Assembly: GCA_963845175.1 (NCBI GenBank)
Contig: CAWJRI010000012.1
Span: 13,928 to 77,927 of the forward strand
Source: an uncultured archaeon
Lineage (GTDB): Archaea; Nanobdellota; Nanobdellia; Woesearchaeales; CAIVOO01
DNA length: 64,000 bases
Direction of reading: 5' to 3'
Shown here: positions 535 through 44,552 of the stretch, piece after piece
Position numbering within the stretch: the stretch's first letter is position 1
Layout: the number at the start of each line of letters is the position of its first letter
The notes under the pieces: model-generated
Database searches by the model: none
Seen by the model: the letters and a program-made list of their open reading frames with translations, nothing else
What the model was told of the DNA's origin: nothing
Program-made: the position numbers and the translations under genes

Positions 535-1221
535 TTATTGCAAATTTGTGCGGTTGTAAAACAAATAAGCGCCTCCGGAATCCTTAATATTAATAAACTG
601 TCCCTCACCTGAAAATATTGTTTCAAAAGGATTTGAATAGGCGAGCGGGCTGTAAATCATGAATTCCTGGCTTGATGCATCCCACTTCATCACGTACCTG
701 TACTTATCGCCAAGGGTTGAAAGATGCTTTGTTATGTTTGTGCTGAATTCATAAGGATAAGTTGGTGTGTTCCAGCCAAACAAAAGGCTCAGGTTCAAAT
801 CACCAAAATTATTGCCATGACAGTAAAGGTCTGTTTTGTTGTTTTTTTCAAAATAAATGAAATAGCTGAGGTTCTCATTGAATCTATCAAAAGGATTTGA
901 ATAAGCAAGCGGGCTGTAAATCATGAATTCCTGGCTTGATGCATTCCATTGCATAAGATATCTATAGGAGTTGTTTATCTGCGAAAGCGCGCTTTCAACT
1001 GATTTGTTTGTGAGATTTGTGCAGAAAGATATTAGATTCCAGCCTTGCTCGAGCGGGATGAAGCAAACAGGAAGAATTTCAAGTCTAACCACTGCCGCAC
1101 CAGTTAGGGAATTATTTGCTTTTTCGCCAGTTTTTTCTGGAAGCGGGCTTAAAAGATAAATCGATAAAATCAACACATAAACAAGGATTGCGCACAGCAG
1201 ATACTTCATACCCCTTTTCAT
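535..1221 (-). CDS. N-terminally anchored/secreted 228-aa protein with an internal two-fold repeat (GWN...YRY[LV]M.W.ASSQEFMIYSPLAYSNPF); partner gene of the adhesin cassette
   Basis: ORF track. Hydrophobic N-terminus (YLLCAILVYVLILSIYLL). Two ~85-aa repeats. Paralog at 3049..3735 in the same position relative to an adhesin gene. Confidence 0.7.
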   Translation of the reverse strand: MKRGMKYLLCAILVYVLILSIYLLSPLPEKTGEKANNSLTGAAVVRLEILPVCFIPLEQGWNLISFCTNLTNKSVESALSQINNSYRYLMQWNASSQEFMIYSPLAYSNPFDRFNENLSYFIYFEKNNKTDLYCHGNNFGDLNLSLLFGWNTPTYPYEFSTNITKHLSTLGDKYRYVMKWDASSQEFMIYSPLAYSNPFETIFSGEGQFINIKDSGGAYLFYNRTNLQ

Positions 1222-1254
1222 ATTTGATTAGAACTGTTTTTTATTTAAAAATCT

Positions 1255-1298
1255 TTAGATTCTTTTGATATAAATCTTGAGTTTTCCAGTATGATTGC
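1255..1298 (-). pseudogene. 44-nt relic of the 3' end of a copy of the 146/162-aa gene (3769..4209); junction scar of the tandem duplication
   Basis: The reverse complement reads NHTGKLKIYIKRI*, matching the C-terminus NHTGKLKVYIKRI* of the gene at 3769. Homology stops abruptly at 1298 / 3812 (offset 2,514 bp). Confidence 0.7.
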
Positions 1299-1337
1299 TT
1301 AATAAAGCCAGTTTAAGCGTATAATTTTAAAAAATCC

Positions 1338-3026
1338 TTATGAGGATTTCTTTGCAGTAAATGTCAATACAACGTTTTTATTACCCACTCCTGCATCAGC
1401 CGGAACAATTAATTTAATTGATGTGTTAAACTCATTATTGCCTGCTCCAAATTTCAGTTTATCACACAATGTCGCAGCTGCGTTAGCTGTATTTATTTCC
1501 TTGTATGTGTTCAAGTAGGTTGAGTTATCACAAGCGCCAAGTTCTGTCTCCCAGCCAATTATCTCTAAGCCCGGAGCTGTTCCGCCTAGCCATGAAGTGA
1601 TATTTGAGCTTGCTGAAACATTAACTGTTTCGTTCACTGTTCCGTCATTTTTAATTTGGAGGTATTGCTCAGGCCAGGACCAGGTACCGCCTTCTGCTGC
1701 TGTATTGTTGCTTTCAAGCGTAGCACTTGAATTATCCCCTGCAACTCGTCCATCTCCAAAATCAATATCATATTTGACAGATATTGAAACTTCTGATGTT
1801 AGATTAATGGACACATTCCCCAAAAGATTGCATGAGATAGTGCATACTGGGCATAGACTAACAATAAACGAGTCCGCTGACCATGGAGAGCATTTTTCTG
1901 GATCGCAGGTTCTGACGCGCCAGTAATATATGCTGTCATTTGAAAGATTTGTTCTTGATATCGGAGCGATTGCGCTTATGTTACTGTAAAGCAGAGTTGA
2001 GAAATCATAGAAATGACTGAACTGGAATTCGTCGTGGACAGGGTCAAGTTCAGGGTCTATGCCTGATGTCCAGTTTAGACTTACATTAGTTAATGTTGTT
2101 GAAGGCTGATGTTCCAGAATGGGCGCTGAAGGCGCGGAGTTTGTTACTGAAAAGCTGTCTGATACCCAGGCAGAGCATCCGCCTGCGGCTTCACCGAGTG
2201 AATCACAGGTTCTGACACGCCAGGTATGAAATGTTCCTAAAAGAAGGCCAGATCTTGCCTGCGGACTTGATGCAGTTATATTTATCGCTTCAGAATCAAA
2301 CTGGAATTCGTTGTGAACTGGTGTATCATTTTCAGGGTCTGGGTATGATATCCAATTGAGCGAGACAGATGTGTTGTGTGAGTCAGCCTGGTCTGTCAAG
2401 TGCGGCGCTGGAGGCGCTGCATTTGTTATTGTAAATGTGCTTGAGCCCGGAGCAGAACAGCATTGGTCATTGCATGTCCAGACTCTCCAGGTATGCAATG
2501 TATTATAGCTAAGTCCAGATTTTGATTGTGGGCTATGTGCAGTTGTGTTCATGGTTCCTAAATCCAGTCGGAATTCGTCATACTGAGTATAGCCCCATGG
2601 GTCTGTGCCAGATGTCCATGACAAACTAACAGAATTTAAGTGCTGATCAGCCTGGGGTGTAAGCGAAGGGCTTGTAGGCGGATTGCACACAGTTACATTA
2701 ACTCTTGCTGCCCCAGACGGGTTTGCAATTCCTGTATTCAAACCCGTAGCAGTTGATTTGTTTGCGTAAACTGAAACAGTCCCTCCTGCGCTAAGTTTGA
2801 GGTTGGCAATAACATAATATCCAGTTGATTCAGAAATGTAATGTCCGACACAGCCGTCGCCAGAACATCCGCTTACTGTAACTGTGACAGTTGCTCCGGA
2901 AAAGGCGTTGCCATTCATGTAATGGATGTAGCCGTCGCATGTCCCCGTATAAACCTCTCCCGCATAAGCAATAGGAATAGCTAACAAAACCAATGCAGCG
3001 AGTAAAAACCTATTCATATTCTTCAT
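1338..3026 (-). CDS. Secreted 562-aa adhesin-like protein: signal peptide, CarboxypepD_reg-like domain, three FN3-like repeats, and a C-terminal domain homologous to the 199-aa protein at 5449..6048
   Basis: ORF track. Three repeats carry the pattern SL[SN]W[TI]S..DP....[YH][DN]EF....HTWRVRTC. The C-terminal ~170 aa (GNVSINLTSEVSISVKYDIDFGDGRV...NKNVVLTFTAKK) aligns with the 199-aa protein (GNVSVNLTSSVSVLVKYNINFGNGRV...KRNVVLTFTVK). Confidence 0.85.
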   Translation of the reverse strand: MKNMNRFLLAALVLLAIPIAYAGEVYTGTCDGYIHYMNGNAFSGATVTVTVSGCSGDGCVGHYISESTGYYVIANLKLSAGGTVSVYANKSTATGLNTGIANPSGAARVNVTVCNPPTSPSLTPQADQHLNSVSLSWTSGTDPWGYTQYDEFRLDLGTMNTTAHSPQSKSGLSYNTLHTWRVWTCNDQCCSAPGSSTFTITNAAPPAPHLTDQADSHNTSVSLNWISYPDPENDTPVHNEFQFDSEAINITASSPQARSGLLLGTFHTWRVRTCDSLGEAAGGCSAWVSDSFSVTNSAPSAPILEHQPSTTLTNVSLNWTSGIDPELDPVHDEFQFSHFYDFSTLLYSNISAIAPISRTNLSNDSIYYWRVRTCDPEKCSPWSADSFIVSLCPVCTISCNLLGNVSINLTSEVSISVKYDIDFGDGRVAGDNSSATLESNNTAAEGGTWSWPEQYLQIKNDGTVNETVNVSASSNITSWLGGTAPGLEIIGWETELGACDNSTYLNTYKEINTANAAATLCDKLKFGAGNNEFNTSIKLIVPADAGVGNKNVVLTFTAKKSS

Positions 3027-3048
3027 TATTATTCACCTATTTAAAAAA

Positions 3049-3735
3049 TTATTGCAAATTTGTGCGGTTGTAAAACAAATGAGCGCCTCCAGCATCATCT
3101 ATGTAAATAAACTGGCCCTCGGTTGGTAGTATTGTTTCAAATGGCTTTGAAGATGAAAGCGGGCTGTAAATCATGAATTTCTGGGCTGAAGCATTCCACT
3201 TCATCAGATACCTATATTTCCCGCCAAGGGTTGAAAGATATTTTGTTATGTTTGCAGTGACCATATAAGGATAAGTTGGTGTGTTCCAGCCGGACAACAG
3301 GCTCAGGTTCAAATTGCCAAAATCAGTGCCCTGACAGTAAAGGTGTGTTATGTTGCTTTCTTCAGAATAAATGAAATAACTGAGAGTTTCATTGAATTTT
3401 GTAAATGGGTTTGAAGATGAAAGCGGGCTGTAAATCATGAATTTCTGGGCTGAAGCATCCCATTCCATTACATATCTATATGAGCCGCTTATCTGCGAAA
3501 GCGCATTTTCAACTGACTTGTCTGTGAGATTTGTGCAGAAAGATATTAGATTCCAGCCCTGCTCAAGCGGGATGAAGCAGAAAGGAGCAATTTCAAATCC
3601 AACCACTGCCCCCCCTGTTATGGGGCTGGGCATTTTTTCTCCGGTTTTTTCTGCAGGCGGGATTAAAAGATAAATGAATAAAATCAATATACAAACAAGA
3701 ATTGCGCAGAGCAAATACATAATGTCCCTTTTCAT
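3049..3735 (-). CDS. Paralog of the 228-aa internal-repeat protein (535..1221)
   Basis: ORF track. Same length and architecture. Both of its internal repeats read ASAQKFMIYSPLSSS[NK]PF. Confidence 0.8.
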   Translation of the reverse strand: MKRDIMYLLCAILVCILILFIYLLIPPAEKTGEKMPSPITGGAVVGFEIAPFCFIPLEQGWNLISFCTNLTDKSVENALSQISGSYRYVMEWDASAQKFMIYSPLSSSNPFTKFNETLSYFIYSEESNITHLYCQGTDFGNLNLSLLSGWNTPTYPYMVTANITKYLSTLGGKYRYLMKWNASAQKFMIYSPLSSSKPFETILPTEGQFIYIDDAGGAHLFYNRTNLQ

Positions 3736-3768
3736 AAATGGTTAAAATTGTTTTTTATTTAAAAAGCT

Positions 3769-4209
3769 TTAGATTCTTTTGATATAAACCTTGAGTTTTC
3801 CAGTATGATTGCCAAGCGAAGCGCCTTCTGGCACAGTTGCGGTTATATTCACTGTTTTTGTTACATCTTTTTCAAGAACAAAGTCATTATCTGAAATCGT
3901 AACCCAGTTTTTTAAGTTGCCTGACGCAACTATCTGCACAAGAACAGGACTCTGATAATTGTGCTTTAATATGATCTTCTGCATCCCGCTGTTGCCGGCA
4001 GACATTTTCCCAAAATAAATCATTCCGGGAATTATGCCTATGCCAAAGCCTGATTTATCATCAACGACTTTCAGTAGCAGGTCATACTCTTTATAACTGA
4101 TTATTTTGTGACGGGTATAAAGTATCGACGTGACACCAATTATAATAAGTACAATAGTTAACAGCAAAACTAGAATCTTTAAAATGCTAAATTTCTGTTT
4201 CTTCCTCAT
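3769..4209 (-). CDS. N-terminally anchored small beta-sandwich protein (146 aa from the internal ATG; the track ORF extends to 4257)
   Basis: MRKKQKFSILKILVLLLTIVLIIIGV is a TM segment. The C-terminal pattern is FG..S.G......I..N......V.I..SG....WV..S...F.L......V.I.A.VP..A..G.H.G.L.V, which is CARDB/DUF11-like. Start chosen at M17 to limit overlap with the upstream gene. Confidence 0.65.
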   Translation of the reverse strand: MRKKQKFSILKILVLLLTIVLIIIGVTSILYTRHKIISYKEYDLLLKVVDDKSGFGIGIIPGMIYFGKMSAGNSGMQKIILKHNYQSPVLVQIVASGNLKNWVTISDNDFVLEKDVTKTVNITATVPEGASLGNHTGKLKVYIKRI

Positions 4210-5383
4210 TTTTATTTTTCTTTCTCCTCCAGAACCAGACGAGGTTGAAGATAACAAGCAGAATTAATATGAGTATAAGGATGTTTGTTGTTGTCAAATA
4301 ACTTCCGAATCCACTTTCAAATCCTTTTGCAGGCATTTCTGTCTTTCCGCCCTTAAGTACATCTATTGTTCCATTTTTGTATGAATAATGCATTTCATTG
4401 CTTCCTATCTCATTAAATGACAGCGCGATGTTTATTTTATAGCTGCCTACCAGAAGATTTGCTGTGTTAAGGTAGCCTGTAATATTTTTGATTTCCCACG
4501 AGCTCAGCGTCTTTTCAGAAGCGGAAAAAGTCATTAATTTATAGCTCCCATTTAATACGCTGACATCGGCAAAAAGGTTTTCAACGGGGTCGTTCCATTC
4601 ACTTTGAACTTCCACATTGAATCCATTAACCTGCTTTTCATAAACCTCTTTCGTATAATCAATTATTTTGACATTTAAAATTCCTATCCTAAAATTATCT
4701 TGGGCAGTTGTTGATTTCTCATCGTACTGGACTGTCGCGACTGCCTTGTAATTGCCCTGCTTCTGGCCTTTTGTATTCCATTTTGCATTCAGGGTTGCGC
4801 TGCCATAAATATCCACTGGCTTTTCGTCTGTTGCCACAGAACCAACCTTTTCATTTCCGTTGTAAATATCAATGACTGCCTTTGCGCCATTAATCTTTTC
4901 TGTGCCCACATTATTAACTGTCACAACAAACTCGGCGTCCTTGCCAAGCTTGGCGTCTTTTGCGTCCAAAGACGCTTCAGCGTACTTTCCCGGATACTGA
5001 ACAAAAATTTCAATTGGAGATATAACCTCTCCCCTTGCACCCACAGGCCCGCCTGTTCCTGTGGATTCTGTTGCAATAAAACGTATTGCATGGTTACCTG
5101 GCTTTTCTATCTTTTCAGGAAACTTCAGGCTGACATTTACACTGCCGTATTCCCCTGGATTAAGGAAAACCTTGTTTGAACTCAGGGTTGCGTATTCTGC
5201 CAAATCACCTGAAAGCTGCAGGTCAACATCCATTGCACTGTTCATGTTGCTCCTAAGCCTATAGGTTATTTGTGTCTCAAGATTTGGCTTGAAGTTTATT
5301 TTAGCCTCTGCGGGGGAAACACCCACTGAATAAACTATTGGAAGAACCAGCAGGAATATTAAAAGCGCAGTTAATTTCTTCAT
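4187..5383 (-). CDS. 398-aa surface protein: signal peptide, ~3 CARDB-like beta-sandwich domains, C-terminal TM and a basic tail
   Basis: ORF track. N-terminus MKKLTALLIFLLVLPIVYS. The motif FVVTVNNVGTEKINGAKAVIDIY is CARDB-like. C-terminus LILILILLVIFNLVWFWRRKKNK. The N-terminal domain is paralogous to the protein at 21235..21876. Confidence 0.8.
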   Translation of the reverse strand: MKKLTALLIFLLVLPIVYSVGVSPAEAKINFKPNLETQITYRLRSNMNSAMDVDLQLSGDLAEYATLSSNKVFLNPGEYGSVNVSLKFPEKIEKPGNHAIRFIATESTGTGGPVGARGEVISPIEIFVQYPGKYAEASLDAKDAKLGKDAEFVVTVNNVGTEKINGAKAVIDIYNGNEKVGSVATDEKPVDIYGSATLNAKWNTKGQKQGNYKAVATVQYDEKSTTAQDNFRIGILNVKIIDYTKEVYEKQVNGFNVEVQSEWNDPVENLFADVSVLNGSYKLMTFSASEKTLSSWEIKNITGYLNTANLLVGSYKINIALSFNEIGSNEMHYSYKNGTIDVLKGGKTEMPAKGFESGFGSYLTTTNILILILILLVIFNLVWFWRRKKNKNEEETEI

Positions 5384-5421
5384 TATTGTTCTGTGTTTGT
5401 CAAGAATTTATATACTTTTCT

Positions 5422-5444
5422 AAAAAAAGAAAAAAAGAAAAAAA
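5422..5444 (-). terminator. Oligo-T tract (minus strand) immediately after the stop of the 199-aa gene; candidate archaeal intrinsic terminator
   Basis: The plus strand reads aaaaaaagaaaaaaagaaaaaaa, 4 nt downstream (in the gene's orientation) of the stop at 5449-5451. A TATA-like element (tatataaatt on the minus strand, about 5408-5417) for the next gene follows. Confidence 0.45.
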
Positions 5445-5448
5445 TACT

Positions 5449-6048
5449 TTACACCATTTTAACGGTGAAAGTCAGCACTACGTTTCTCTTACCTGTTGAT
5501 GCGTCAGACGGTACAACTAATTTAATTGACGCATTGACAGTGTCTGCAGAGTTGCCATATTGCAGGTTCGGGCATAATACTGCTTGTGCGGTGGTGCTTA
5601 TGTCATGGTATGCAAATAATGTTGCATTATTTGTGCAGGCGCCAACTTCTGTCTGCCAGCCCCTAGTATATATAGCTGGATTTGTTCCACCTAGCCATGA
5701 CGCAACTGCGGTCGGTTCTGAGACATTAAGTGATTCGTTCACTGTTCCATCATTCTCAATGTATATGTACTGCTTAGAATATGTCCAGCTTCCGCCTTTT
5801 GCTGCTGTATTGTTGCTTTCAAGAGTTGAACTTAGATTGCTTCCTAAAACCCTGCCGTTTCCGAAGTTAATGTTATATTTAACCAACACTGAAACAGATG
5901 ATGTAAGGTTTACAGAAACGTTTCCAGTTGTTCCCCTCCCTGTTACGTACAGGACACTTGGCTTTCCAAAGCTCATAATGCCTACTACAGAAACAACAAT
6001 TGCAATTCCCACTAGAATCGCCAATGTTTTGTTTGAAATGTCTGCCAT
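5449..6048 (-). CDS. 199-aa N-terminally anchored/secreted beta-rich protein; candidate major structural (fibre) subunit with a possible TasA/CARDB-like fold
   Basis: ORF track. Strong SD (GGAGGTGA) about 6 nt upstream of the ATG and its own oligo-T terminator. The N-terminal motif DIS.KT.AIL..IAIV.S is shared with the 77-aa upstream protein. The body is homologous to the C-terminal domain of the 562-aa adhesin. Confidence 0.8.
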   Translation of the reverse strand: MADISNKTLAILVGIAIVVSVVGIMSFGKPSVLYVTGRGTTGNVSVNLTSSVSVLVKYNINFGNGRVLGSNLSSTLESNNTAAKGGSWTYSKQYIYIENDGTVNESLNVSEPTAVASWLGGTNPAIYTRGWQTEVGACTNNATLFAYHDISTTAQAVLCPNLQYGNSADTVNASIKLVVPSDASTGKRNVVLTFTVKMV

Positions 6049-6063
6049 TTATTTCACCTCCTT

Positions 6064-6297
6064 TTATGTTATCTCGAGCGTAACTTTTCCAGTTGCTGAA
6101 GCAACTGTGTTTTCTCCCTGTTGTTGATCCCCATTTATAACCCCGATTGACACTTGGGCTGTGCCTTCAGGGTTTGTTCCTTTTACCACTATACCCTTAT
6201 CTAGCATCTTCCATGTAGCAATCGCAGAAAGAACAATAGCAATTACCAAAAGAATCGCCACTGTTTTTTTAGAGATATCGTCACTCATGTTTTGCAC
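6064..6297 (-). CDS. 77-aa protein with the same conserved N-terminal hydrophobic segment as the 199-aa protein, plus a short beta-rich tail
   Basis: ORF track. SD-like GAGGTG upstream. DDISKKTVAILLVIAIVLSAIA aligns with ADISNKTLAILVGIAIVVSVVG of the next gene. Confidence 0.6.
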   Translation of the reverse strand: MQNMSDDISKKTVAILLVIAIVLSAIATWKMLDKGIVVKGTNPEGTAQVSIGVINGDQQQGENTVASATGKVTLEIT

Positions 6298-6390: not shown

Positions 6391-6587
6391 GTATATAAAA
6401 TACTTACATTGTAAGTACAAATAAAAAGATTTATATATTCTATACTTACATTGTAAGTAAAACATAAATTTTTATATATAAAATACTTACATTGTAAGTA
6501 AAGAAACACAGAATTTTTATATAAGTACCTACATTGTAAGTACAAATAAAAAGATTTATATATTCTATACTTACATTGTAAGTAAAA
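6391..6587. promoter_or_regulatory. Array of five TATA-box-like elements, each followed by a 17-bp palindrome TAC[TC]TACA-T-TGTAAGTA (candidate operator)
   Basis: Palindromes at 6401-6417, 6443-6459, 6484-6500, 6526-6542 (one mismatch) and 6568-6584. Centre-to-centre spacing is 42, 41, 42 and 42 bp. Each is preceded within 2-5 nt by (T)TTATATA. The last palindrome ends 3 nt before the first HTH reading frame. Confidence 0.6.
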
Positions 6588-6767
6588 TTGATACCTACTG
6601 AGATTTTCAAAGACCGTACATTAAGTGTTCTCGAAGCTATTGTTGAATATCTCAAGGAGCAGAATGGGCTTTCTTATCACAAAATTGCTGAGATGCTAAA
6701 CAGAAATGACAGGACAGTCTGGACATGCTATCATCGCGCAAAGCAGAAAAGGAAAGTGACAGAATGA
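6588..6767 (+). CDS. Mini HTH protein, copy 1 (59 aa if initiated at TTG 6588); possibly leaderless or untranslated
   Basis: Encodes (L/M)IPTEIFKDRTLSVLEAIVEYLKEQNGLSYHKIAEMLNRNDRTVWTCYHRAKQKRKVTE. There is no ATG and no SD. Its stop overlaps the ATG of copy 2 (ATGA). Confidence 0.4.
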   Translation: MIPTEIFKDRTLSVLEAIVEYLKEQNGLSYHKIAEMLNRNDRTVWTCYHRAKQKRKVTE

Positions 6768-6924
6768 TACCTACTGAGATTTTCAAAGACCGTACATTAA
6801 GTGTTCTCGAAGCTATTGTTGAATATCTCAAGGAGCAGAATGGGCTTTCTTATCACAAAATTGCTGAGATGCTAAACAGAAATGACAGGACAGTCTGGAC
6901 ATGCTATCATCGCGCAAAGCAGAA
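6591..6924 (+). repeat. Perfect 158-bp direct repeat (6591-6748 = 6767-6924), period 176 bp, duplicating the mini-HTH gene
   Basis: Read directly from the sequence. I found no mismatches across the 158 bp. Confidence 0.9.
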
Positions 6925-6943
6925 GAGAAAGAAAAATGAATGA
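6764..6943 (+). CDS. Mini HTH DNA-binding protein, copy 2 (59 aa), sigma-70 region 4 / LuxR / Tfx-N-like helix-turn-helix
   Basis: MIPTEIF...LSYHKIAEMLNRNDRTVWTCYHRAKQKRKKNE fits the pattern LS..EIAE.L.....TV.....RA..K typical of sigma70_r4/LuxR-type HTH. An ATG with a purine-rich stretch upstream is present. The track ORF start at 6725 is an out-of-frame read-through of copy 1. Confidence 0.65.
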   Translation: MIPTEIFKDRTLSVLEAIVEYLKEQNGLSYHKIAEMLNRNDRTVWTCYHRAKQKRKKNE

Positions 6944-9900
6944 AGACAAATTAAGCGAGCTGGAGAAGAGGTTTGAGGAGTGCAAGCTCTCGCTTACTGA
7001 ATATGATATCTTAAAAGAGAAGCTAATCAAGAAATATGACTTGGCTGAGCCAGCCAAACCTCCAAGAATAGAAAAGAAGAAGCCAAGAAAGCTGGCGATT
7101 GGAATAGCTGTTTTGGTTGTCTTGATTGGATTATTCTTCTTGGTAAAGGCGCCTTCATTTACCGGCTTGTTTATGCAGAATGTAAGCAACGAGACAAATG
7201 CCAGTATTAATATAAGTGTGGTTTTGAATGAAAGTCAGATAAATGAAACTTTGAATGTTTCAATTAAGAACATTGGTTTAGAGAATATAACTGAAAATCT
7301 AACTTCAAATAATTCAATCAAGAATATTAGTTTAGAAAACAAAATTAAAAAAATCATTCCAAAAACTGCGTTGGACAAATTAAATGACAAATTCAATGGT
7401 ATCAATTTTGAAAAGGATAAAAACTACTTAAAAATAAAACACAAAAAAGCAGAAATAAGGCTAAAGGGCGCGAATGAGTCAGAGATAAAAGAAGTCCAGG
7501 TTGCAAGCGAAGATGAGATTAAGATAAAAAATAAAAAAGCTTCTTTCGGAACGCCTGTTGTCGCGATAAACTCAATAAACATAACAAATGCCACAATTAT
7601 TCTGGACAAGGAAGGGCCTGTCAATAGGATTGTCTACTGCCCTGACTGGAATTTTACTGGAGAAAGCTGCTCTGCGTGGGTTGAAACAAACATTCCATTC
7701 ACGGATTTGGGCGACAAGATAAGCTTTACAGTGACCCACTTCACAGCTTATGCAGGAAGCTTTGTGACAAATGTTGCTTCTGAATGGGATGCGGGATTGT
7801 TCACAAACACTGAGAAACTTGGCAATGTGACAATTCTTTCTGGAGCGAACACAACAGGAACATATTTGAGCTACGTCTACAGAAATGGGACAACAGCAAA
7901 CGACGCAGTTATTGTGGACTGGACGAAACTTGCGTGGGTGGATGATTACAACGGAACAACACATTATCAGGAAGCGCCGGTAAGAAGTGGAATGGTCGGC
8001 TACTGGAAACTGAACAACAACACGCTGGACAGTAGCACAAAGCACAACAATATGACAAGCTACGAGGCAACACCAACGACAGAGTGCGTTTTCGGAACAG
8101 GGAACTGCGCTTATGATTTTGGTGGAACAAGCAGTTATATGACTGCATTGAACAGTGCCGACTTTGATTTTGGCACAGGAGATTTTACAGTAGAGGTATG
8201 GGTTTATCCAACAGGAGATCCTTCTTCAATGGAGGAAATAATAAACAAGGCAGACTCAACTTCTTATGCACCTTTCAGGATTTTAAGAGTGCCAACAGGA
8301 GGCGGACTAAATTATTTAATGTCGAACACCGCGGGAAGTTGGGTAACATACGGAGGCGTATGGTACGGAGACAGCGCATACGCACCGCTAAACAAGTGGA
8401 CACACATCGTGCTGACAAGAAATTCGGGTACAGCACACTTCTACGTGAACGGAGTGCAGGTTTCGAGTATGTCAGCAAACTACCAAGTCTATAATGACGC
8501 AAGCGAAGTCGCAATAGGCAGACTCCTGCATTACGGAACACCCTACTGGTTCCAGGGCAAAATAGACAATGTAATTATTTACAAAGACAAGGGACTAACG
8601 CAAGACGAAGTAAAAGAGGAATATGCAAGAGGCGCGAAAGAGCTGAACATAACTCTGGCGTACAGAACAACTAATCTGACGCAGGAAGTTTACAACACAA
8701 GCGGGCTGCTTGGCTGGTGGAAGCTGGACGAGAACGCGACAGACTTCTCAGGAAACGGCAACAACGGGAACATTGTCGGAGCAGCAAAAATAGGCGGATA
8801 TTTCAACAACAGCTACATGTTTGACCTTGCGTACCTCAAATACATAGACGTGGGAACAGGGCTGAACGCGCAAACTGTGATGACTCTCGAAGCCTGGGTA
8901 AACCCTCACAGTGGATATTCACATATAGGGGGCATAATATCAAAGTATCAACAGGGAGCAAGCCCAGCAGGAAGCTATTACATGGACATAGATGACGCAC
9001 TGCATCCCAACTATGCATTCTACGGGCTGTCTCCTTCATGCGCAGGGTCAGTAACAAGTTACACATTCCCGACAGATAAATGGACTTACTATGCAATTAC
9101 GTACGACGGAAGCAAGGTAATAACATACATCAACGGAAACGATATAGATGAAAGAGCCTGCTCCGGAACAATAACACAGTCGTCAGCAACAGTATGGATA
9201 GGAAACCTAAACCAGCCTGCATATTATTATAACTACTATGGCAAAATCGACAGCGCGAGAGTTTACAACAGAAGCCTTTCAGCAGAGGAAATAAAATACA
9301 ACTACTGGCATGCAAACTTTACAGGCAGAAACTTCGGAGCTTACAAGGCAGAAAGCCCAGCAACAATAAACCAAAACGCAAAATACTTCCAGTACAAGGC
9401 AAAACTAGTCAGCAACGCAAGTGGGTACACTCCATTCCTAGAAAAAACTGAAGCAAATTTCTCATTTACATCTGGTAACACTGCTCCGACGCAGGGAACT
9501 CCTAAATTAAATTCAACTCACAGAACAAACAAGTCAAATGAAAATCTGACTGTCTATAACACTTCAACCTACGATGCTGATGGTGATCATGTTACAAACA
9601 TAATCAACTGGTACAGAAACGGAAATTCAATAACTGCGCTGAACATGCCTTTCAATTCCAACAATTCAGCTGGAGCTGGAAAGACAAAAGATTATTCTGG
9701 AAATGGAAATAATGGAACTATTAATGGAGCGACGTGGAGTGCAACATCTGGATTTGACGGAAAAGGAGCATACAGCTTTGACGGAACAAACGACTACATT
9801 ACAATTCCACATTCATCTTCAATAAATATTATCTCAGGCCAAGCAACTTATTCAATGTGGCTCAAAAGAGGCAGGTCTGGAGCTACTGAAGTATTGTTTG

Positions 9901-12900
9901 ACAAGAACTCTGTAACACCAGAGCCAGTTTATATCAGGTTCAGCAATAATGACCGCATTTATATTCAGATATTTGCCAACGATGGCTCTTATCATTATTT
10001 TTTTGCTTCAAGCACTTCTACGATTACTGATACGGACTGGCATTTATTAGATGTAGTCTTTGATTATGATACTTGGACAAATTCAAAAATTTACATTGAT
10101 GGGGTGGCGGAAACATTATACAGCCCAACTCAATTTGGAACGCAAATTGCATTAACAAACACAGGGATACTTACTATTGGCTCACCTAATTCTGGTGCAG
10201 ATTATAATTTCAACGGCAAAATAGACAATGTAAGAATCTACAACAGAGCTTTGTCAGCAGCGCAGATAAAAGCATTGTACAACAACAGAACAGATAGAAT
10301 TGTCTCGCAGGAATTAAATGCAGGAGAAATCTGGAAAGCGTCGATCACGCCGAATGATGGTTACGCTGACGGACTGACAAAGTTCTCGAACAACGTAACA
10401 ATACTCAGCTCAGCTAATACAGCACCTACACAAGGGACACCAATACTGAATTCAACGCACGGCACAAATAGGTCAAATGAAAATCTGACTGTCTATAACA
10501 CTTCAACCTACGATGCTGATGGTGATCATGTTACAAACATAATCAACTGGTACAGAAACGGAAATTCAATAACTGCGCTGAACATGCCTTTCAATTCCAA
10601 CAATTCAGCTGGAGCTGGAAAGACAAAAGATTATTCTGGAAATGGAAATAATGGAACTATTAATGGAGCGACGTGGAGTGCAACATCTGGATTTGACGGA
10701 AAAGGAGCATACAGCTTTGACGGAAGCAATGATATAACTGTAAGTGATTCATCATCTCTTAAATTAGGAAGAGGGTCATTCACAATAAGTTTATGGCTCA
10801 AAACTGGTTATCATGGATATCAATTAATTCTTGGAAAATATAATCCTACTTATCCATATGAAGATTATGAAATTAGTATGTTAGATGCTTCAACAATAAG
10901 AGGCTGTGCAATAGACTGTGGCACGAGTGCTTGTGGATTTGGTTCTACAAGGTTCTGTCTTCCAGTAACTTTCTCGATTGCAGATAATCAATGGCATTAT
11001 ATTACTTATACGCGAAGTGGTAGTTTAGAAACATTCTATATTGATGGCGTTTCTTTAGGAACACTTACTCAAGGACCATTGAATACGGATTCTACAGGAG
11101 TGCTTCATATCGGCAGTACATCTTTTAGCGGAAAAATAGACAACATAATCATTTACAATAGAAGTCTGACAGCGCAAGAAATCAAGGCATTGTACAACAA
11201 TAGGACAGATAGGATTGTTTCGCAGGAGTTAAATGCAGGAGATATTTGGAAAGCGGCAGTCACCCCCAATGACGGCTACACAGACGGACTCACAAAATTC
11301 TCAAACAACATAACAATACTCAGCGCAGCTAATACGGCACCTACACAGGGAACGCCTAAATTAAATTCAACCCACGGCACAAACAGATCAAATGAAAACC
11401 TGACTGTTTACAATGTTTCGACTTATGATGCAGAAGGTGATCCTGTCACAAACATAATCAACTGGTACAAAAACGGAAATTCAATTATGGCTCTGAACAT
11501 GCCGTTCAACTCAAACAATTCAGCCGGAGCTGGGAAGACAAAAGATTATTCTGGACATGGAAATAATGGAACTGTTAATGGCGCAACCTGGATTTCAAAT
11601 GGAGGGTTTGACGGAAAAGGAGCTTACAGCTTTGACGGAAGCGATTATGTAAGCTGTGGAAATAGAGCAAAAACTGTATTAAATGATAGGCTTACTCTTG
11701 AAGCTTGGATTAAGCCGACTGTAGGAGCAACCAGTCCGATAGTTGGGAAAGACTCCCAATCTCCTGGCTGGGAAAGCTATGCAATGTCACTTTCAACTGC
11801 TGGAGAAGTTGTAATGCAACTTACGAATGGTGCAACTTACTCTTATGTTAAATCAAGCGGGGTTGTATCTAACGGAGTATGGTCACATGTTGCAGTAACT
11901 TGGCAATATACAGGAGCAGGAGGAATGACTGATGTTTCAATTTACATAAATGGAGTTAAGCAAACAAATTTCCTTGTTGCTCAAACAGGAGAGCCATCTA
12001 CTTTATCAGCAGCAACAGGAGATTTAAGAATTGGAATGCTCGCAAACCAGGCATATTATTTCACAGGCAAAATAGACAATGTAAGAATCTATAACAGAAG
12101 CCTGTCAGCAGAACAGATAAAAGCATTGTACCAGAATAGGACAGATAGGATTGTTTCGCAGGAGTTAAATGCAGGAGATATTTGGAAAGCGGCAGTCACC
12201 CCCAATGATGGTTATTCAGATGGACTGACAAAGTTCTCAAATAATGTGACAATACGCGCCCCAGCTGTAGCTAACACAGCATCTACACAAGGGACACCAA
12301 TACTGAATTCAACGCACGGCACAAATAGGTCAAATGAAAACCTGACTGTTTACAATGTTTCGACTTATGATGCAGAAGGTGATCCTGTTACAAACATAAT
12401 CAACTGGTACAGGAATGGAACTTCGATTGCTGTGCTAAATATGCCGTTCAACTCAAACAATTCAGCTGGAGCTGGAAAGACAAAGGATTACTCAGGCTTA
12501 GGAAATAATGGAACTGTTAATGGAGCAAAATGGATTCCAAATGGAGGGTTTGACGGAAAAGGTACATACAGCTTCGACGGAAGCGGAACTTACATAGATT
12601 TAGGAACAGGATTAAATGTACAAACCGAAATGACATTTGAAGCGTGGGTGATGCCACATTATCCATTTCCACAAATAGGAGCAATACTATCAAAGTTTAA
12701 TCAATACGGAAGTCCACCAGGAAGCTACTATTTTACAATAGATGGGAATTTACACCCGAATTACTATATTTATGGACCAGCTTGTTCGGGACAGGTAAAT
12801 AGTTATACATTCCCGACAGAACAATGGACGCACTACGCTGTAACGTATAATGGAAGTAAAGCAATAACATATATTAACGGACAGAAAGTAGATGAAATAA

Positions 12901-15900
12901 GCTGTTCGGGTGCGATACAGCATTCAGCGTCAAGCGTATGGATAGGGAATTTAAATCAGCCAGCATATTATTACAAATATTTCGGAAAAATAGACAGCGT
13001 AAGATTATACAATACATCTTTGTCAGCGGCGCAGATAAAAGCATTGTACCAGAATAGGACAGATAGGATTGTTTCGCAGGAGTTAAATGCAGGAGATATT
13101 TGGAAAGCGGCAGTCACCCCCAATGATGGTTATTCAGATGGACTGACAAAGTTCTCAAATAATGTGACAATACGCGCCCCAGCTGTAGCTAACACAGCAC
13201 CTACACAAGGGACACCAATACTGAATTCAACGCACGGCACAAATAGGTCAAATGAAAACCTGACTGTTTACAATGTTTCGACTTATGATGCAGAAGGTGA
13301 TCCTGTTACAAACATAATCAACTGGTACAGGAATGGAACTTCGATTGCTGTGCTAAATATGCCGTTCAACTCAAACAATTCAGCTGGAGCTGGAAAGACA
13401 AAGGATTACTCAGGCTTAGGAAATAATGGAACTGTTAATGGAGCAACCTGGAATGCAACAGCTGGATTCGATGGGAAAGGCGCCTACAGCTTTAATGGTA
13501 ATACTAATAATTACATATCCTGGACTTATACAAAACCTCAAAACAGCTTTACTATGGTGGCATGGGTCAAAGCAACTACAACGCACGAAATTGATTCTTT
13601 ATCGGATCCTCTTGGTGGAGTAAGCGGTGAAAAATATGTATTCTGGCCAAATCATGAAGCTAATAGTAGTGCTGGTGCTGGACTTTCTGTCGGAACAAAT
13701 GGTATAACTGTATACGAACATGGAGATTGGTACCTGCCTGCAGTTGCCGAATATATTGGTAACTTGTCAACACATTGGCACCACATTGCCATAGTTTACG
13801 CCAACAAGCAACCTAAAATTTATTTAGATGGCGCTTTAGTAAGTACTGGCGGAATATCCACGAGGACGATAGTTTATGCTCCAACCCAAATGGGTTCAGG
13901 TTCTTATGGTGGTTTCCCAGGTTTAATAGAAGATGTCCGTATCTACAACAGTTCATTATCAGCAGTAGAAATAAAAGCATTGTACAACAACAGGACAGAC
14001 AGGATTGTCTCGCAGGAATTAAATGTAGGAGATATTTGGAAAGCGTCAATCACGCCGAACGACGGCTACAGCGACGGGCTGACAAAGTTCTCAAACAATA
14101 TAACAATCAAAGCTAACATACCGCCGACACAGGGAACGCCGATATTGAACTCAAGCAAGAGGTTGAACAGATCAAATGAAAACCTGACTGTCTACAATGT
14201 CTCAACCTATGATGCTGACAGCGATCCTGTTACAAACATAATCAACTGGTACAGAAACGGAAATTCAATCATGGTTCTGAACATGCCGTTCAATTCGAAC
14301 AATTCAGCCGGAGCTGGGAAGACAAAAGATTATTCTGGACATGGAAATAATGGAACTGTTAGTGGAGCAACCTGGATTTCAGATGGAGGGTTTGACGGGA
14401 AAGGCGCATACAGATTCAATGATAGTAAGTCAGATTTCATCAATCTTGGAACAGGCAGTTCATTAACAATTGCAGATAAAATCACTTTAGAAGCATGGAT
14501 CTACCTTCCGGACTTAACAGGATATCATCCAATTATCTCAAAACAAGGATACAGTGTGTTAAGATACAATTACGCGTTTGGAACAAGTGGTGCAAATATT
14601 TACTTGTGGCTTGATGCAGAGGGTGGGGGGACAGCCGGAGAGATTATAACAACAGACAATCCTATCACAACAACAGGCTGGCATCACATAGTTGCCTCAT
14701 ATGATGGAAGTTACGAAGCCATTTATCTGGATGGTGTGGACGTAAAGCATCAAGTAGTATCTATAACGCTGGCAAATTCAGGCACACATGCCTGCTACAT
14801 AGGAAGAGAGGATTACAATACTGGAATCTCGGGGCTTTTCAACGGAAAGATAGATTCAGCAAGAATTTATCATCGAGCTTTGACTGCGCAGCAGATAAAA
14901 GCGTTGTACAACAACAGGACAGACAAGATTGTTTCGCAGGAATTAAGTGCTGGAGATGTTTGGAAAGCATCAATCACGCCGAATGACGGATACAGCGACG
15001 GGCTGACAAAGTTCTCAAACAATGTAACAATACTAAGTTCAGCAGCAGCAAATACACCGCCAACACAGGGAACGCCGATACTAAATTCTACTCACAGAAC
15101 AAATAAGTCGAATGAGAATCTGACTGTCTACAATGTCTCAACCTATGATGCTGACAGCGATCCTGTTACAAACATAATCAACTGGTACAGAAACGGAAAT
15201 TCAATCATGGTTCTGAACATGCCGTTCAATTCGAACAATTCAGCCGGAGCTGGGAAGACAAAAGATTATTCTGGACATGGAAATAATGGAACTGTCGATG
15301 GAGCGACGTGGAGTGCAACAGCTGGATTTGACGGGAAGGGTGCATACATGTTTAGCAGCAGTTATATTGAAAGAGCCTACGACCCTGACTTTACTCCAGG
15401 AACCAAAAGCTGGACAGTTGCGGCATGGATAAAAGTTCCGCTTACTGAGGGTCCACCGTCGTTCATTGCAGACTGGTATAGATGCGGCGCTAATCCTTCA
15501 TGCGGTAGTCCTGATTCTGCATTATACAGTCTAAGCATAATTAATAACAACAAAGTAAATTGGCATGTAAGAGATGATAATAGTAATGATGTATCACTAA
15601 CAAGTTCTTCAGCTGTTGCAGATAATAATTGGCATTATATAGTTGGAACTTTTGACCCAACAAATGACTTAACAAAGTTATATATAGATGGAGCTGAAGT
15701 TGCGACAAATAATACACCCTTAACTTCTCTTTCAGACGGCGGTGTGTCAATACCATTAGAAATTGGACGACGTTTTGTAACAGGATGGGGTTCACCAAGT
15801 GGTTATTTGTACGGCAAAATAGACGATGTAAGAATCTATAGCAGAGCGCTGACAGCTGCGCAGATAAAAGCGTTGTACAACAACAGAACAGATAGGATTG

Positions 15901-18900
15901 ATTCGCAGGAATTAAAAGTTGGAGAGACTTGGAATGCGAGCGTTACGCCGAACGACGGCTACGCAGATGGGTTGACAGAATTCAGCAATTCGGTCACTAT
16001 TAAGTCGTCAACCCCTCCAAACATAACGAAGGTACAGCTGCATGACAAAAACAAAAAGCCGATAACAAACAAGACGCTCGTAAAAGCAGGGGAAAATATA
16101 ACAATAAATGTGACTGTGGCGCAGACAGAGGGAACAGTGAGCAGCGTCTGGATAAAAGTATGGAAAACTGTTGCAAACGCATTTACAACAATCTTTGAAG
16201 GAGTCCTAAATTTAATTTCTGGCAATCTGTGGCAGATAACAATAACAACAAATGGAAGCTGGACGCATGGCACGAATTACACCATCTACGCGAATGACAC
16301 AACTAATATAATAACGTCAAGAAATGAGAAAGTGTTTGTCAATAATCTGCCAACACAGGGTGTGCCGGCATTAAGTTCTCTCCTTAGAAGAAATGGAACA
16401 AATGAAAACCTAACTGTTTACAATACATCTACATATGACAGAGACAAAGATCCTGTTACAAACATAATCAACTGGTACAGGAATGGAACTTCGATTGCTA
16501 TGCTGAACATGCCGTTCAATTCGAACAATTCAGCCGGAGCTGGGAAGACAAAAGATTATTCTGGACATGGAAATAATGGAACTGTCGATGGAGCGACGTG
16601 GAGTGCAACAGCTGGATTTGACGGGAAGGGTGCATACAGCTTCACTGGAACAAATGGAGAATACATAGATGCAGGAAACGTGCCAGGAATAAATGGAGCA
16701 TCTGCATTGTCAGTTGAAGCCTGGGTTTATGTTAATGCATTTTCAGGCGATAATGGAATTGTTGCGAAAAGAGTTGCAGGCGTTGGAGAGGGCTTTCAGC
16801 TTATAAGTTATGATAGTGGAGGCAATCATTTCCATTGGTATCCAGAAACAACCGGAACAAATAATGTTGCTTCTTCAGTTAAAAATAAAGTTATCAATAC
16901 TTGGTATCATGTCGTTGGAACTTATGATGGTTCTTACGCAAGGATTTATGTTAATGGCGTTCTTGAGGATACACAAGTGGTTACGGGAACAATAATATCT
17001 TCAGCAGCGTCAATATGGATAGGAAATTATTATAGCACAGACCACCCTTTTGACGGCAAAATAGACAGCATAAGAATATACAATAGAGCGCTAAGTCCGG
17101 CGCAGATAAAGGCATTATACAACAACAGAACAGATTTAATTGTCGCTGAAGAAACAAAAAGCAAGGAAACATGGAAGGCGTGCATAACGCCGAACGACGG
17201 CTACGGAGACGGACCAACAAACTGCTCAAACAATCTCACAATAAATACAGCTCCAACGGTTGTACTGGCAGGCCCTGCCAATAACTCTGTTTGGAATATC
17301 CCGCCAACCTTCAGCTGGACTTATTCTGACAGCGACAATGATGTCCAGCAAGAATACCATATTATTATGGACAATGATAGTGACTTCTCCTCGCCGGAGA
17401 TAAATAGCACGGTAGTGAGCAGCAACAATTACACGCAGATAATGCCAAACAATCCAGGCAGTTATTACTGGAAAGTTCAGGTTTACGACGGCAAGGAATG
17501 GAGCAACTTCTCTGGCACAAGAAAGTTCACAACTACATGCCTAAGCCCATACAATGATATGTACATTAATTCAAACACAAAGCTGTGCAGCGGAACTTTC
17601 CATATTAATGACAGCTACCCTGATGGCGTCTTGATTTTAAATGCATCAGACATAATCTTAGACTGCAACAATGCAACTTTAATTGGAAATGGAGCGAACT
17701 ATGGGATTTATGTCAATCAAAAAAACAATATTACAATCAAGAACTGCATATTGAAAAATTATAATTATGGGATCTATTCTTGGTATTCGAACAATTCCAA
17801 AATAATAAATAATAAATTTTCCAACAGCACAATATATTTGTCTTCTTCACATTATTTCAACATAATAAGCAATTATATAAGCGCAAGTGGAAAACTCATA
17901 GACCTTGAGGGTTCTCGTCATACAAATATTTTCAACAATAAGATAAGCAAGAACCTATCTATTGATTTGTTTACCGGAAGTGGCAGCGGTGGACAGATTT
18001 ATGCATATCATTCACCCTACACTTATGCGCTAAATAACACATTCAAATATTCTGGAGGCATAAGGTTTTCCTGGAGCGACAACAGCAGCGCAGTCAACAA
18101 TACAGTTACTGATTTTAGCACAGCTTTTGCTGGCTTGATTGGCGTAGATGGTTCTAATGGGATTCTTTTCGAAGGAAACAATATAACAAACACAATGGGG
18201 CTGCTTGGTGCATTATATGCAGATGGTTCAAAAAATGTAATAATTAAAAGAAACAAAGTAGAGAACAACTTGCTCATGATGCTAACAATTACAAACTGCA
18301 ATAATATAACCGTCAGAGACAATAATCTAATGTCGAACAAAGACGCATGGTACATAAAGAACATATCTGCTATTTACGAAGAAATTACAAACCAGACTTT
18401 CCCGACATCCCTTGGAATTGACGGTTCGTCGTCATTCTTAATGACTTTGTTACAGCAGCTTTTCAGCCATGTTGAATCTGGCGCATTTAATATAAGTGGA
18501 GGAAATATAACGGGCGTTAATCTGGATGCTATGTCTTTATTGAAAATTCTCGGTCCGGTTTATTCGACAAATGTCAACAATATGACCTTAGTTAGCAACA
18601 ATCTAACCTTTGACAGCTTTAAAATTATGGCGAATCTGAGAGCTAACAAAGTTGATGTTAAGCGCGATGATGTTTCATTTGGAGCAGCTGTCGCGTACAT
18701 CGAAGGAAGTGATAATATTATCGAAAATAACTCTTTCATATTCAACAATAGCGGAGTTTCAATACACAGCTATGGAAATGTCACAGACATAGAAAACAAC
18801 AGATTAAACATAATTCTGGGTTCCTTCGCCCTGCAGGGAAATTCGAACAGAGTCTACCATAACAAGATGGCAATTGAAAAAAGCGGCATTGACCTGAATT

Positions 18901-21242: not shown

Positions 21243-21876
21243 GCTGAACAGAACAGGGCTTGTGATGTTTTTGCTAGCTGTGCTTGTGTGCAGCTCTGCG
21301 CTTGCACTTGGGATAGGAACAAACAACAAGGTAATTAAATATGAGCCGAATGTTCAAAAATCAGCCAGTGTCTATATAATAAATGATGAGCATAAAGACA
21401 TGAATGTCGAAATATCTGCTGCTGGCTCGCTTGCAGAGTATGCGACAGTTCCGAACACATTATTTGTTTCGGCTTCAGAGGACATAAAGAAGTTCAGCAT
21501 TGATTTCACGCTGCCGAAAGGCCTGGAAGAAGGCGACTTAAAAGTGATTGCCTCCGAAGCAACTATTCAGAACAGTCAGATAGGCGCGAAGGTGCACGCA
21601 ATTGCAGAGGTAAAGATAGATTTCTCAACAGGTGCAGCAAAAGAAGAAAATGCAAATGTTAAGAAAGTCAATCTTGGGGAGCATCTGACAAATGTGCAAG
21701 AAGCTGATCCTTTCGGCATTAAGAAAGGGGCTGCTGCAAAATACAACATAGTAAAGGCGCTGCTAATACCCTCAATAGCAATAATTACAATAGTTATCGT
21801 AGATTTAATATTTTATTACAGAAGGAGAAAGGCAAAGCGTGGCCAGGAGCGTTTTAGCGAGCTTGGGAAGCTTTAA
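21235..21876 (+). CDS. 213-aa surface protein: signal peptide, one beta-sandwich domain, C-terminal TM and a basic tail; paralog of the N-terminal domain of the 398-aa protein
   Basis: The ATG at 21235 overlaps the giant gene's stop by 8 nt (ATGAATAA). AAGSLAEYATVPNTLFV aligns with LSGDLAEYATLSSNKVFL (398-aa protein). C-terminus IAIITIVIVDLIFYYRRRKAKR. Confidence 0.75.
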   Translation: MNKLNRTGLVMFLLAVLVCSSALALGIGTNNKVIKYEPNVQKSASVYIINDEHKDMNVEISAAGSLAEYATVPNTLFVSASEDIKKFSIDFTLPKGLEEGDLKVIASEATIQNSQIGAKVHAIAEVKIDFSTGAAKEENANVKKVNLGEHLTNVQEADPFGIKKGAAAKYNIVKALLIPSIAIITIVIVDLIFYYRRRKAKRGQERFSELGKL

Positions 21877-39975: not shown

Positions 39976-39976
39976 T

Positions 39977-42241: not shown

Positions 42242-42351
42242 AATACACCTCTTTTATTACTTTACTATAATAACACAAAATTTTATTTATTTAGTTATTT
42301 AAAAAGATTATTTAGGAATATATAAATATTACGTGTTATTTAATTGGAAAA

Positions 42352-42792: not shown

Positions 42793-42800
42793 AGATTAAA

Positions 42801-43388: not shown

Positions 43389-43390
43389 TG

Positions 43391-43954: not shown

Positions 43955-43969
43955 TTTATTAGGTATGTT

Positions 43970-44542: not shown

Positions 44543-44552
44543 GTTGTATCAC

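Follow-up and report, generated by a model that had tools for sequence, protein, structure and literature searches.

The stretch of DNA analysed here, referred to as the window, comprises 64,000 nucleotides of contig CAWJRI010000012.1 (assembly GCA_963845175.1) and encodes fibrillarin and Nop5, which identifies its host as an archaeon. It carries a locus in which a small membrane-associated protein and large adhesins share one beta-sandwich domain and are encoded beside relatives of WxLIP, a component of the WxL/Csc surface complex of Firmicutes. On balance, we favour the view that this locus is a Woesearchaeota version of that complex, in which the shared domain docks adhesins at the cell surface. 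A docking system that holds adhesins, rather than a pilus, is the most likely reading of its genes. Seven co-oriented genes on the minus strand (535-6297) specify products of 77/74, 199, 398, 162, 228, 562 and 228 amino acids (aa), and the divergent genes on the plus strand are two tandem helix-turn-helix (HTH) genes, a giant of 4,786 aa and a 219-aa open reading frame (ORF). Coordinates are collected in Table 1.

The nearest known system is the WxL/Csc cluster of Lactobacillales and Bacillales, which consists of CscB (small WxL protein), CscC (large WxL protein), CscA (WxLIP, with DUF916 and DUF3324) and CscD (small LPXTG protein). In these clusters, the small WxL protein consists of a signal peptide and the WxL domain only, and the domain of the large WxL protein is always C-terminal (PMC10599100, PMC9772566). 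WxLIP has two immunoglobulin-like (Ig) domains and a C-terminal transmembrane helix, and a small LPXTG protein is often part of the cluster (PMC10599100, PMC9772566).

The domain shared by the archaeal proteins is seen in its simplest form in the 199-aa protein, which is made up of an N-terminal hydrophobic segment, a linker with an invariant T36-G37, a strand (TGNVSVNLT) and a beta-sandwich of ~150 aa. A reading of this DNA made from the sequence only had described this protein as colinear with the C-terminus of the 562-aa protein and had seen a looser version of the same pattern at the C-terminus of the giant. Both observations are borne out. The 199-aa protein is 57% identical to residues 403-559 of the 562-aa protein over 157 aa (E 4e-59), and a family profile built from 26 homologs of the 199-aa protein, with the giant left out, matched only four of all 690 ORFs in the window: the 199-aa protein, the C-terminus of the 562-aa protein (E 9e-50), the last ~110 residues of the giant (E 1.3e-8) and the 77-aa ORF (E 1e-7). 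The match in the giant stops 8 aa before its stop. Compared directly by BLASTP, the 199-aa protein and the giant tail gave a weak match (E 0.002), and a Jackhmmer search started from the giant tail converged on the 199-aa family.

An exhaustive profile search retrieved 2,409 representative clusters at E<=1e-3. Most family members are 195-230 aa long; others are beta-helix or FN3 proteins with the domain at their end, and these fusion proteins bear it without the N-terminal segment. Among the matches listed, every source name was 'hypothetical protein' and none came with a precomputed Pfam domain. Searches of Pfam, NCBIfam and PDB sequences gave no match for the 199-aa protein, whether the query was its own sequence, a profile or a set of 126 members. 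The best-conserved part of the family is its N-terminus, M.DISNKTLA..L..AIVVS; further along, T36-G37 and G42 are invariant or nearly so, G42 being found in at least 90% of members. Homologs are named as Woesearchaeota or Nanoarchaeota, and we met the family only in such metagenome-assembled genomes (MAGs). Modules of the Woesearchaeota type also occur in MAGs labelled 'uncultured Methanosarcinales' or 'Methanosarcinales archaeon' (loci L011, L014, L024, L033, L035, L043 and L046, and further L049, L050, L056, L058, L060 and L062), which are probably mislabelled bins. In members P0038, P0044, P0054, P0057, P0071, P0085, P0096, P0100, P0113, P0125 and P0170, the domain is interrupted, in the loop that follows 'ATLDS', by a large insertion of Kelch-like propeller repeats (WEYDG..W) or of a LamG-like domain, and the N-terminal segment and first strands are kept.

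Where the domain stands in the large proteins points to its function. Among non-redundant large relatives, 24 of 24 have its end no more than 8 aa from their C-terminus, and this extreme position argues that it is an incorporation or anchoring module. The 562-aa adhesin consists of a cleavable Sec signal peptide (cut between AYA and G), a carboxypeptidase-regulatory-like domain, three FN3-like repeats and then the shared domain with its N-terminal strand (residues ~403-560, window ~1341-1820), and it has no anchor of its own. Its FN3 orthologs in two other loci (L001 11640-13208 and L007 7933-9252) end in a Gly/Pro/Cys-rich linker, a transmembrane helix and a basic tail, with helix and tail occupying precisely the position of the shared domain in the window protein. 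That a transmembrane anchor takes the place of the domain in these orthologs argues for an anchoring role.

The giant is built from an N-terminal cytoplasmic stretch, a transmembrane helix, LamG-type units, an N-rich beta-helix-like region, FN3-like domains and, at its extreme C-terminus (~20830-21239), a 'large-type' version of the shared domain. Its repeat units, about ten in number, are near-identical and ~250 aa long, with a LamG-like body and the motif NWY[RK]NG.S...LNMPFNSNNSAGAGKTKDYSG.GNNGT; Laminin_G_3 is annotated on the counterpart of the giant in locus L005. Conserved cysteines bracket the C-terminal domain (CSLP...VWCSQDE), and the same bracket is present in the L001 counterpart. 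The stop of the second HTH copy (6941-6943) overlaps the giant's likely start codon, ATG 6936. This overlap makes the 6936 start the likelier one, and it fits the length of 4,768 aa that the sequence-only reading had given.

The link to WxL/Csc is provided by the 398-aa protein, which, judged by its sequence, is a genuine WxLIP homolog. It combines a Sec signal peptide with two Ig domains (one DUF916-like, the other DUF3324/CARDB-like) and one more domain, and its C-terminus is formed by a transmembrane helix and a basic tail. When an alignment of 32 orthologs was compared by hhalign with nine WxLIPs from Firmicute plasmids, the match scored 98.7% (E 2.2e-16) over 193 columns covering DUF916 and DUF3324; reversed-sequence controls gave a score of about 27 and P about 0.01, with matches in transmembrane helices only. 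The family alignment also matches both domains of EfmWxLIP1 (PDB 9i1y) at E 7e-4, and 9 of its 32 members weakly match Pfam WxLIP_HBD, individually below gathering scores. Isolated DUF916 has been reported as insoluble unless a partner is present.

Two further proteins of the locus belong to the same group. The single Ig domain of the 162-aa protein, which also has an N-terminal transmembrane helix, is akin to the DUF916-like first domain of the 398-aa protein (hhalign with the 398-aa family, 97.2%, E 4e-11; with WxLIP, 82%, E 1e-5, WxLIP columns 47-155). The 219-aa protein, encoded by an ORF that shares 26 nt with the end of the giant gene, likewise has a single DUF916-like Ig domain, here placed between a signal peptide and a C-terminal transmembrane helix with a basic tail. 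The assembly route had been called unknown in the sequence-only reading; with WxLIP relatives next door, it is better described as docking of the WxL/Csc type than as the work of a pilus operon. A 1:1 ratio of domain proteins to DUF916-like proteins, which is true of the window and of L001, does not hold generally.

This arrangement is not peculiar to the window. The gene context is conserved in 62 related archaeal loci as a module of 74-aa, ~200-aa, ~400-aa and ~150-aa products. The small domain gene or genes have a 74-aa-type gene directly upstream in 52 of 66 cases, a 398-type (~400-aa) gene lies downstream of them in 50 of 65, and a 162-type (~150-aa) gene comes next after the 398-type gene in 45 of 49. 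Genes for large domain-bearing proteins are followed by a 398-like gene of their own in 14 of 19 cases, the 219-aa ORF being that gene in the window, and HTH genes recur in 8 related loci as well as here. For comparison, we took the WxLIP genes of nine Firmicute plasmid clusters together with their neighbours. One or more WxL-type proteins directly precede WxLIP in seven of the nine, a small LPXTG gene comes first in five of those seven, and large adhesins and HTH genes lie nearby. Archaeal loci and WxL/Csc clusters thus have in common the order small anchored protein, domain protein or proteins, WxLIP.

The first position in the archaeal order is held by the 74-aa protein. Its ORF is listed from a GTG as 77 aa; an ATG at 6288 would give 74 aa and is the probable start, since homologs are 71-74 aa long. 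The protein consists of a DISKKT.. transmembrane segment followed by short strands, GTAQVSIGV and the C-terminal ATGKVTLEIT. As had been noticed from the letters, it has in common with the 199-aa family the N-terminal segment DIS[KN]KT.A.L..IAIV.S and the strand next to it (GTAQVSIGV against TGNVSVNLT), and hhalign of the two families confirms this (97.8%, E 1.2e-12, 52 columns within columns 1-54). The protein therefore appears to be a truncated, membrane-inserted relative that retains only the N-terminal strand region of the domain, much as first supposed. An LPXTG motif is not present in it, an N-terminal transmembrane-like segment being found instead. Nothing was found by hhalign of the 74-aa family against CscD-type LPXTG proteins, nor of CscD-type proteins against WxL; a likeness of CscD and WxL N-termini ('S.G.[IV].F + Pro-rich') was dropped as an impression only.

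We propose that the components work together as follows. The small 199-aa protein would be inserted in, or tethered to, the membrane by its conserved N-terminal hydrophobic segment, which resembles a signal anchor because it is long (~18 residues) with an uncharged n-region; the topology and processing of this segment are inferred. The 74-aa membrane-inserted fragment would replace the small LPXTG-anchored protein of bacterial clusters. Archaea have no peptidoglycan, so transmembrane helices would take over from cell-wall binding and sortase anchoring. The membrane-anchored WxLIP relatives of 398, 162 and 219 aa would then capture the domain at the cell surface. In this binding, an inserted beta-strand or hairpin may complete the domain at an open edge, by analogy with the complex of WxLIP and WxL, for which AlphaFold2 (AF2) predictions place a strand of WxLIP in a gap of the WxL sandwich (PMC10599100). 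The AF2 model of the 199-aa protein, described below, has features that fit this mode: a confident core, a conserved N-terminal strand left unplaced, and a last strand whose edge (residues 186-192) is paired, at low confidence, only in the presence of an additional strand. The system as a whole may serve attachment to hosts or surfaces.

Resemblance to WxL/Csc extends beyond the WxLIP homolog with its two Ig domains and C-terminal transmembrane helix. A beta domain of ~150-190 aa occurs alone in a ~200-aa protein and C-terminally on large adhesins, which, as in WxL/Csc, carry FN3, Ig, beta-helix or lectin-type domains. Small paralogs come as one to three tandem copies, HTH regulator genes are associated, and the domain version of the large proteins is shorter than that of the small ones. 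The N-terminal strand of WxL is flexibly attached (PMC9772566), and the strand of the archaeal domain is predicted to be so too. The 74-aa gene takes the place in the order that the small LPXTG protein, CscD, has in bacteria. The archaeal system differs in several respects. Its domain cannot be recognised as WxL; there is neither wall binding nor sortase/LPXTG anchoring, and the small proteins have an N-terminal transmembrane-like segment; there are extra one-domain WxLIP-like proteins, with an N-terminal (162 aa) or a C-terminal (219 aa) transmembrane helix; and the adhesins reach about 4,800 aa.

Several observations weigh against a WxL/Csc-type docking system. First, neither the window protein nor any of the 126 members matched PF13731 at E<=1, and a conserved Trp-x-Leu pair was not found, Trp being unconserved at the positions that would correspond. 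Second, hhalign of the domain against 12-13 WxL proteins gave 3-9% (P 0.001-0.014), no better than reversed controls, and it stayed at background level in several trimmings and modes. Third, WxL clusters have nothing that corresponds to the near-invariant M.DISNKTLA shared by the 74-aa and the 199-aa protein. Fourth, the insertion of a strand between bacterial WxLIP and WxL is itself an AlphaFold prediction, not an experiment (PMC10599100). And finally, the expression signals of the 199-aa gene fit uneasily with stoichiometric docking. A Shine-Dalgarno sequence, GGAGGTGA, lies 7 nt 5' of its ATG, and a T7-C-T7-C-T7 tract lies directly 3' of its stop codon (region 5385-5450, minus strand), followed by TATATAAA ~25 nt ahead of the 398-aa ATG; the strong Shine-Dalgarno sequence and separate oligo-T terminator reported earlier are both present. 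These signals suggest that the 74/199-aa pair has a separate, probably higher, expression level and that the 199-aa protein is made in excess of its partners, and an excess product fits a polymer or coat better than 1:1 docking. The only similarity between the domain and WxL is a C-terminal motif, L.VP..A....LT[FW]; when 3,261 archaeal sequences were ranked with a WxL hidden Markov model (HMM), only members of the 199-aa family came out at the top, but without significance (E 0.005 to 1.2) and perhaps owing to composition. With WxL homology undetectable, the domain would be either a very divergent WxL domain or a replacement for it.

The structural predictions bear on the alternative that fares best, a donor-strand fibre, which we consider unlikely. 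In such a fibre, the 199-aa protein would be the major subunit, with TGNVSVNLT filling the open edge or groove of its neighbour; domain-bearing adhesins would be tips or side decorations, the 74-aa protein would cap or anchor the base, and the WxLIP-like proteins would be tethered chaperones or platforms. AF2, run on the 199-aa protein with the 26-sequence alignment, gave a very confident core of about eight strands and two short helices, with a predicted local distance difference test (pLDDT) score above 90 at residues 50-199 and below 62 at residues 20-50. The conserved, amphipathic strand at residues 42-50 is left unplaced and unpaired in this model, a point in favour of a fibre. A Foldseek search of the PDB was divided in its outcome. 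Its best matches were all subunits of donor-strand fibres, namely CanX/CanA cannulae (E 4e-3, probability 1.0, template modelling score (TM-score) 0.46/0.58), FimA rods, PapE and PapA (TM-score 0.45-0.53 for these three), Csu and CfaB, but all were weaker than E 1e-3, and the scores were modest (0.36-0.58 for the top matches overall).

A single-chain chimera, in which the full 199-aa protein was extended by two copies of its native linker and then by one more N-terminal strand, gave an equally two-sided result. The extra copy folded as a 9-residue beta-strand (DSSP 'E', residues 229-237), and the last strand of the domain lengthened from 193-198 to 186-198, but pLDDT was about 40 for both. We take this as weak evidence from modelling for an open edge on the last strand (pairing residues 186-192), and some form of beta-strand complementation is plausible. 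The invariant T36-G37 and the x-[GA] after it are a possible signal-peptidase site, at which cleavage would place the strand at the start of the mature protein. Other features fit a fibre as well: the strong Shine-Dalgarno sequence and own terminator, which major pilin genes often have; the Kelch-like and LamG-like inserts, which lie in a surface loop of family members; and the octamers reported for a small WxL protein (PMC13522541).

Other facts count against a fibre. Searches of Pfam, NCBIfam and PDB revealed no sequence relation of the domain to TasA/Peptidase_M73, AbpA, CanA, CARDB, the spore-coat-U family SCPU, the thread subunit, TafE or fimbrial families. The locus lacks a signal or pilin peptidase, as had been stated, and none is conserved in the module. 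The signal-anchor-like segment would tether every subunit to the membrane, and the anchor swap and WxLIP partners explain the shared domain without a fibre. A module common to the small protein and the large adhesins, with a role in incorporation or anchoring, is the part of the sequence-only proposal that is supported; for its fibre, a homopolymer of the TasA or chaperone-usher type, we obtained no positive evidence.

Known fibre systems offer instructive comparisons. Cannulae (CanA/CanX), AbpA/AbpX bundling pili, Sulfolobus threads and Tafi resemble the present system in having subunits of ~150 aa that fold as a beta-sandwich or jelly-roll and have a conserved strand at the N-terminus. Haloarchaeal Tafi consists of TafA/E, the tip protein TafC, the anchor TafF with its transmembrane segment and jelly-roll, and the regulator TafB, and the present locus follows a similar logic, with a regulator and a small subunit next to a large adhesin-like protein and to jelly-roll/Ig proteins anchored in the membrane (PMC12337348). 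Unlike these archaeal donor-strand filaments, the present system shows no sequence relation to them, no conserved dedicated signal peptidase and no confidently predicted polymerisation; it has an anchor-like N-terminal segment in place of a cleaved Sec/Tat signal, and WxLIP homologs as partners. As in the two-domain tip adhesins FimH and PapG, adhesive domains lie N-terminal to a C-terminal subunit-like domain. Like TapA of the TasA-TapA system of Bacillus, the small accessory protein would supply only a strand, and like PapD/FimC, Ig-fold partners could complete an incomplete fold. All of these resemblances are of principle. Unlike chaperone-usher pili, there is no usher, periplasm or homology, and the chaperone-like partners are membrane-anchored WxLIP relatives.

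A compromise, in which the domain is an incomplete beta-sandwich and polymerises by donor-strand exchange, the WxLIP relatives are chaperones or platforms and the 74-aa protein is a membrane anchor or nucleator, strikes us as rather improbable. Were it true, the donor-strand fibres of archaea would gain a fourth class, specific to DPANN, that presents giant adhesins with which to attach to hosts, and bacterial WxL/Csc clusters would also be donor-strand assemblies of the same kind.

We attach a similarly small chance to the possibility that these are abundant, heavily N-glycosylated, membrane-anchored coat proteins resembling those of a surface layer, with the domain as a self-contained Ig-like module that was spread by domain shuffling, has no specific partner and undergoes no complementation. 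The many N-x-S/T sequons in the domain proteins and the single N-terminal transmembrane-like segment of most family members would be expected of a coat, and the weak Pfam matches in the family are to generic Ig-like domains only (NPCBM_assoc, 12 of 126 members). A generic module would not be strictly C-terminal in 24 of 24 large proteins, would not be specifically swapped for a transmembrane anchor in orthologs, and would not so regularly have a WxLIP-type gene next to it (50/65, 14/19). The unplaced conserved strand, together with a 74-aa protein that keeps just that strand, argues for an intermolecular role.

We reject type IV pilins, with the 74-aa protein as minor and the 199-aa protein as major pilin, each carrying a class III signal peptide cut by a prepilin peptidase and each assembled by filament machinery encoded in the window: although small and larger proteins have a highly conserved hydrophobic N-terminus in common, as in pilin sets, and the window encodes a filament ATPase of the T2SSE type and a FlaJ/PilC-like platform protein (37729-42241), this pair is about 32 kb from the module, none of 62 loci has an ATPase, platform or peptidase gene linked to the module, a [KR]-[GA] motif is missing ahead of the hydrophobic stretch (which reads N-K-T before L, SNKT/LAIL), AF2 predicts a short helix (7-22) and a Pro/Gly-containing linker with no long pilin helix packed on the globular domain, and fusion proteins carry the domain without the N-terminal segment.

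Returning to the locus as a WxL/Csc-like docking system, its two operons are separated by a conspicuous control region. Five near-palindromes, ACTTACATTGTAAGTA, spaced 41-42 bp apart and each followed by TTTATATA, lie between the 74/199-aa operon and the HTH/giant operon; ACTTACATTGTAAGTA has 10 strand matches, against 0.04 expected by chance, and the repeats look like a candidate operator/promoter array. The neighbouring HTH gene has been duplicated in tandem (176 nt, 95% identical, 6589-6940), and its homolog in L003 has GerE/Sigma70_r4 Pfam matches. The small HTH protein and the repeated palindrome probably control both operons.

The remaining genes of the minus-strand array are two paralogs of 228 aa that flank the 562-aa adhesin gene, each with an internal repeat, YRY[VL]M.W[ND]AS.Q.F.IYSPL. 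A search of 64 sources (63 loci and the window) turned up homologs in only 4 of them, and no match to a known family was found in Pfam or NCBIfam. In the distant locus L003 (4420-7045), the module is directly preceded by TatC, two TatA/B-like genes and the gene for a 475-aa protein that matches Peptidase_S26; as this arrangement was not seen in the other loci examined, we set aside a signal peptidase link. Elsewhere in the window (37729-45116, minus strand) are genes for a 748-aa polytopic FlaJ/PilC-like protein, a 754-aa T2SSE-type ATPase and three paralogous multi-transmembrane proteins of 187-190 aa, a set that resembles type IV filament machinery and is not linked to the module in other loci.

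Table 1. Features of the locus, with positions in the window and the evidence on which each assignment draws.
Feature	Position	Strand	Evidence
Small membrane-inserted protein, 77/74 aa	6064..6297	-	homologs 71-74 aa; hhalign to 199-aa family
199-aa protein, 'small' form of the shared domain	5449..6048	-	AF2, profile searches
398-aa WxLIP homolog	4187..5383	-	hhalign, PDB 9i1y match
162-aa ORF (146 aa from likely ATG at 4209)	3769..4257	-	hhalign
228-aa membrane-anchored protein with internal repeat, lineage-specific accessory	3049..3735	-	ORF list; no family match
Second 228-aa paralog	535..1221	-	ORF list
562-aa secreted FN3 adhesin	1338..3026	-	BLASTP, profile, domain matches
Five near-palindrome copies, candidate operator/promoter array	6398..6587		repeat count against chance
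Two tandem HTH gene copies, ~60-70 aa	6588..6943	+	176-nt duplication
Giant adhesin, 4,786 aa (4,768 aa from likely start 6936)	6882..21242	+	family HMM on C-terminus
219-aa short WxLIP-like protein	21217..21876	+	match to 398-aa family, E 7e-33

We found no description of WxL-like clusters, or of the present module, in archaea in the literature. WxLIP and the logic of WxL/Csc clusters are known; what is new here is a putative docking domain that is either novel or unrecognisably diverged, anchoring by transmembrane segments, and a cargo of giant DPANN adhesins. An attached life on other cells is assumed for DPANN archaea, Woesearchaeota among them, and the link to WxL/Csc supplies a testable mechanism, in which adhesins would dock by their C-terminal domain onto membrane-anchored WxLIP-type proteins. 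It would extend the WxL/Csc system across the divide between bacteria and archaea, with membrane anchors instead of peptidoglycan. Since WxL assembly is known from predictions only, the archaeal variant could show which features of WxL clusters are essential.

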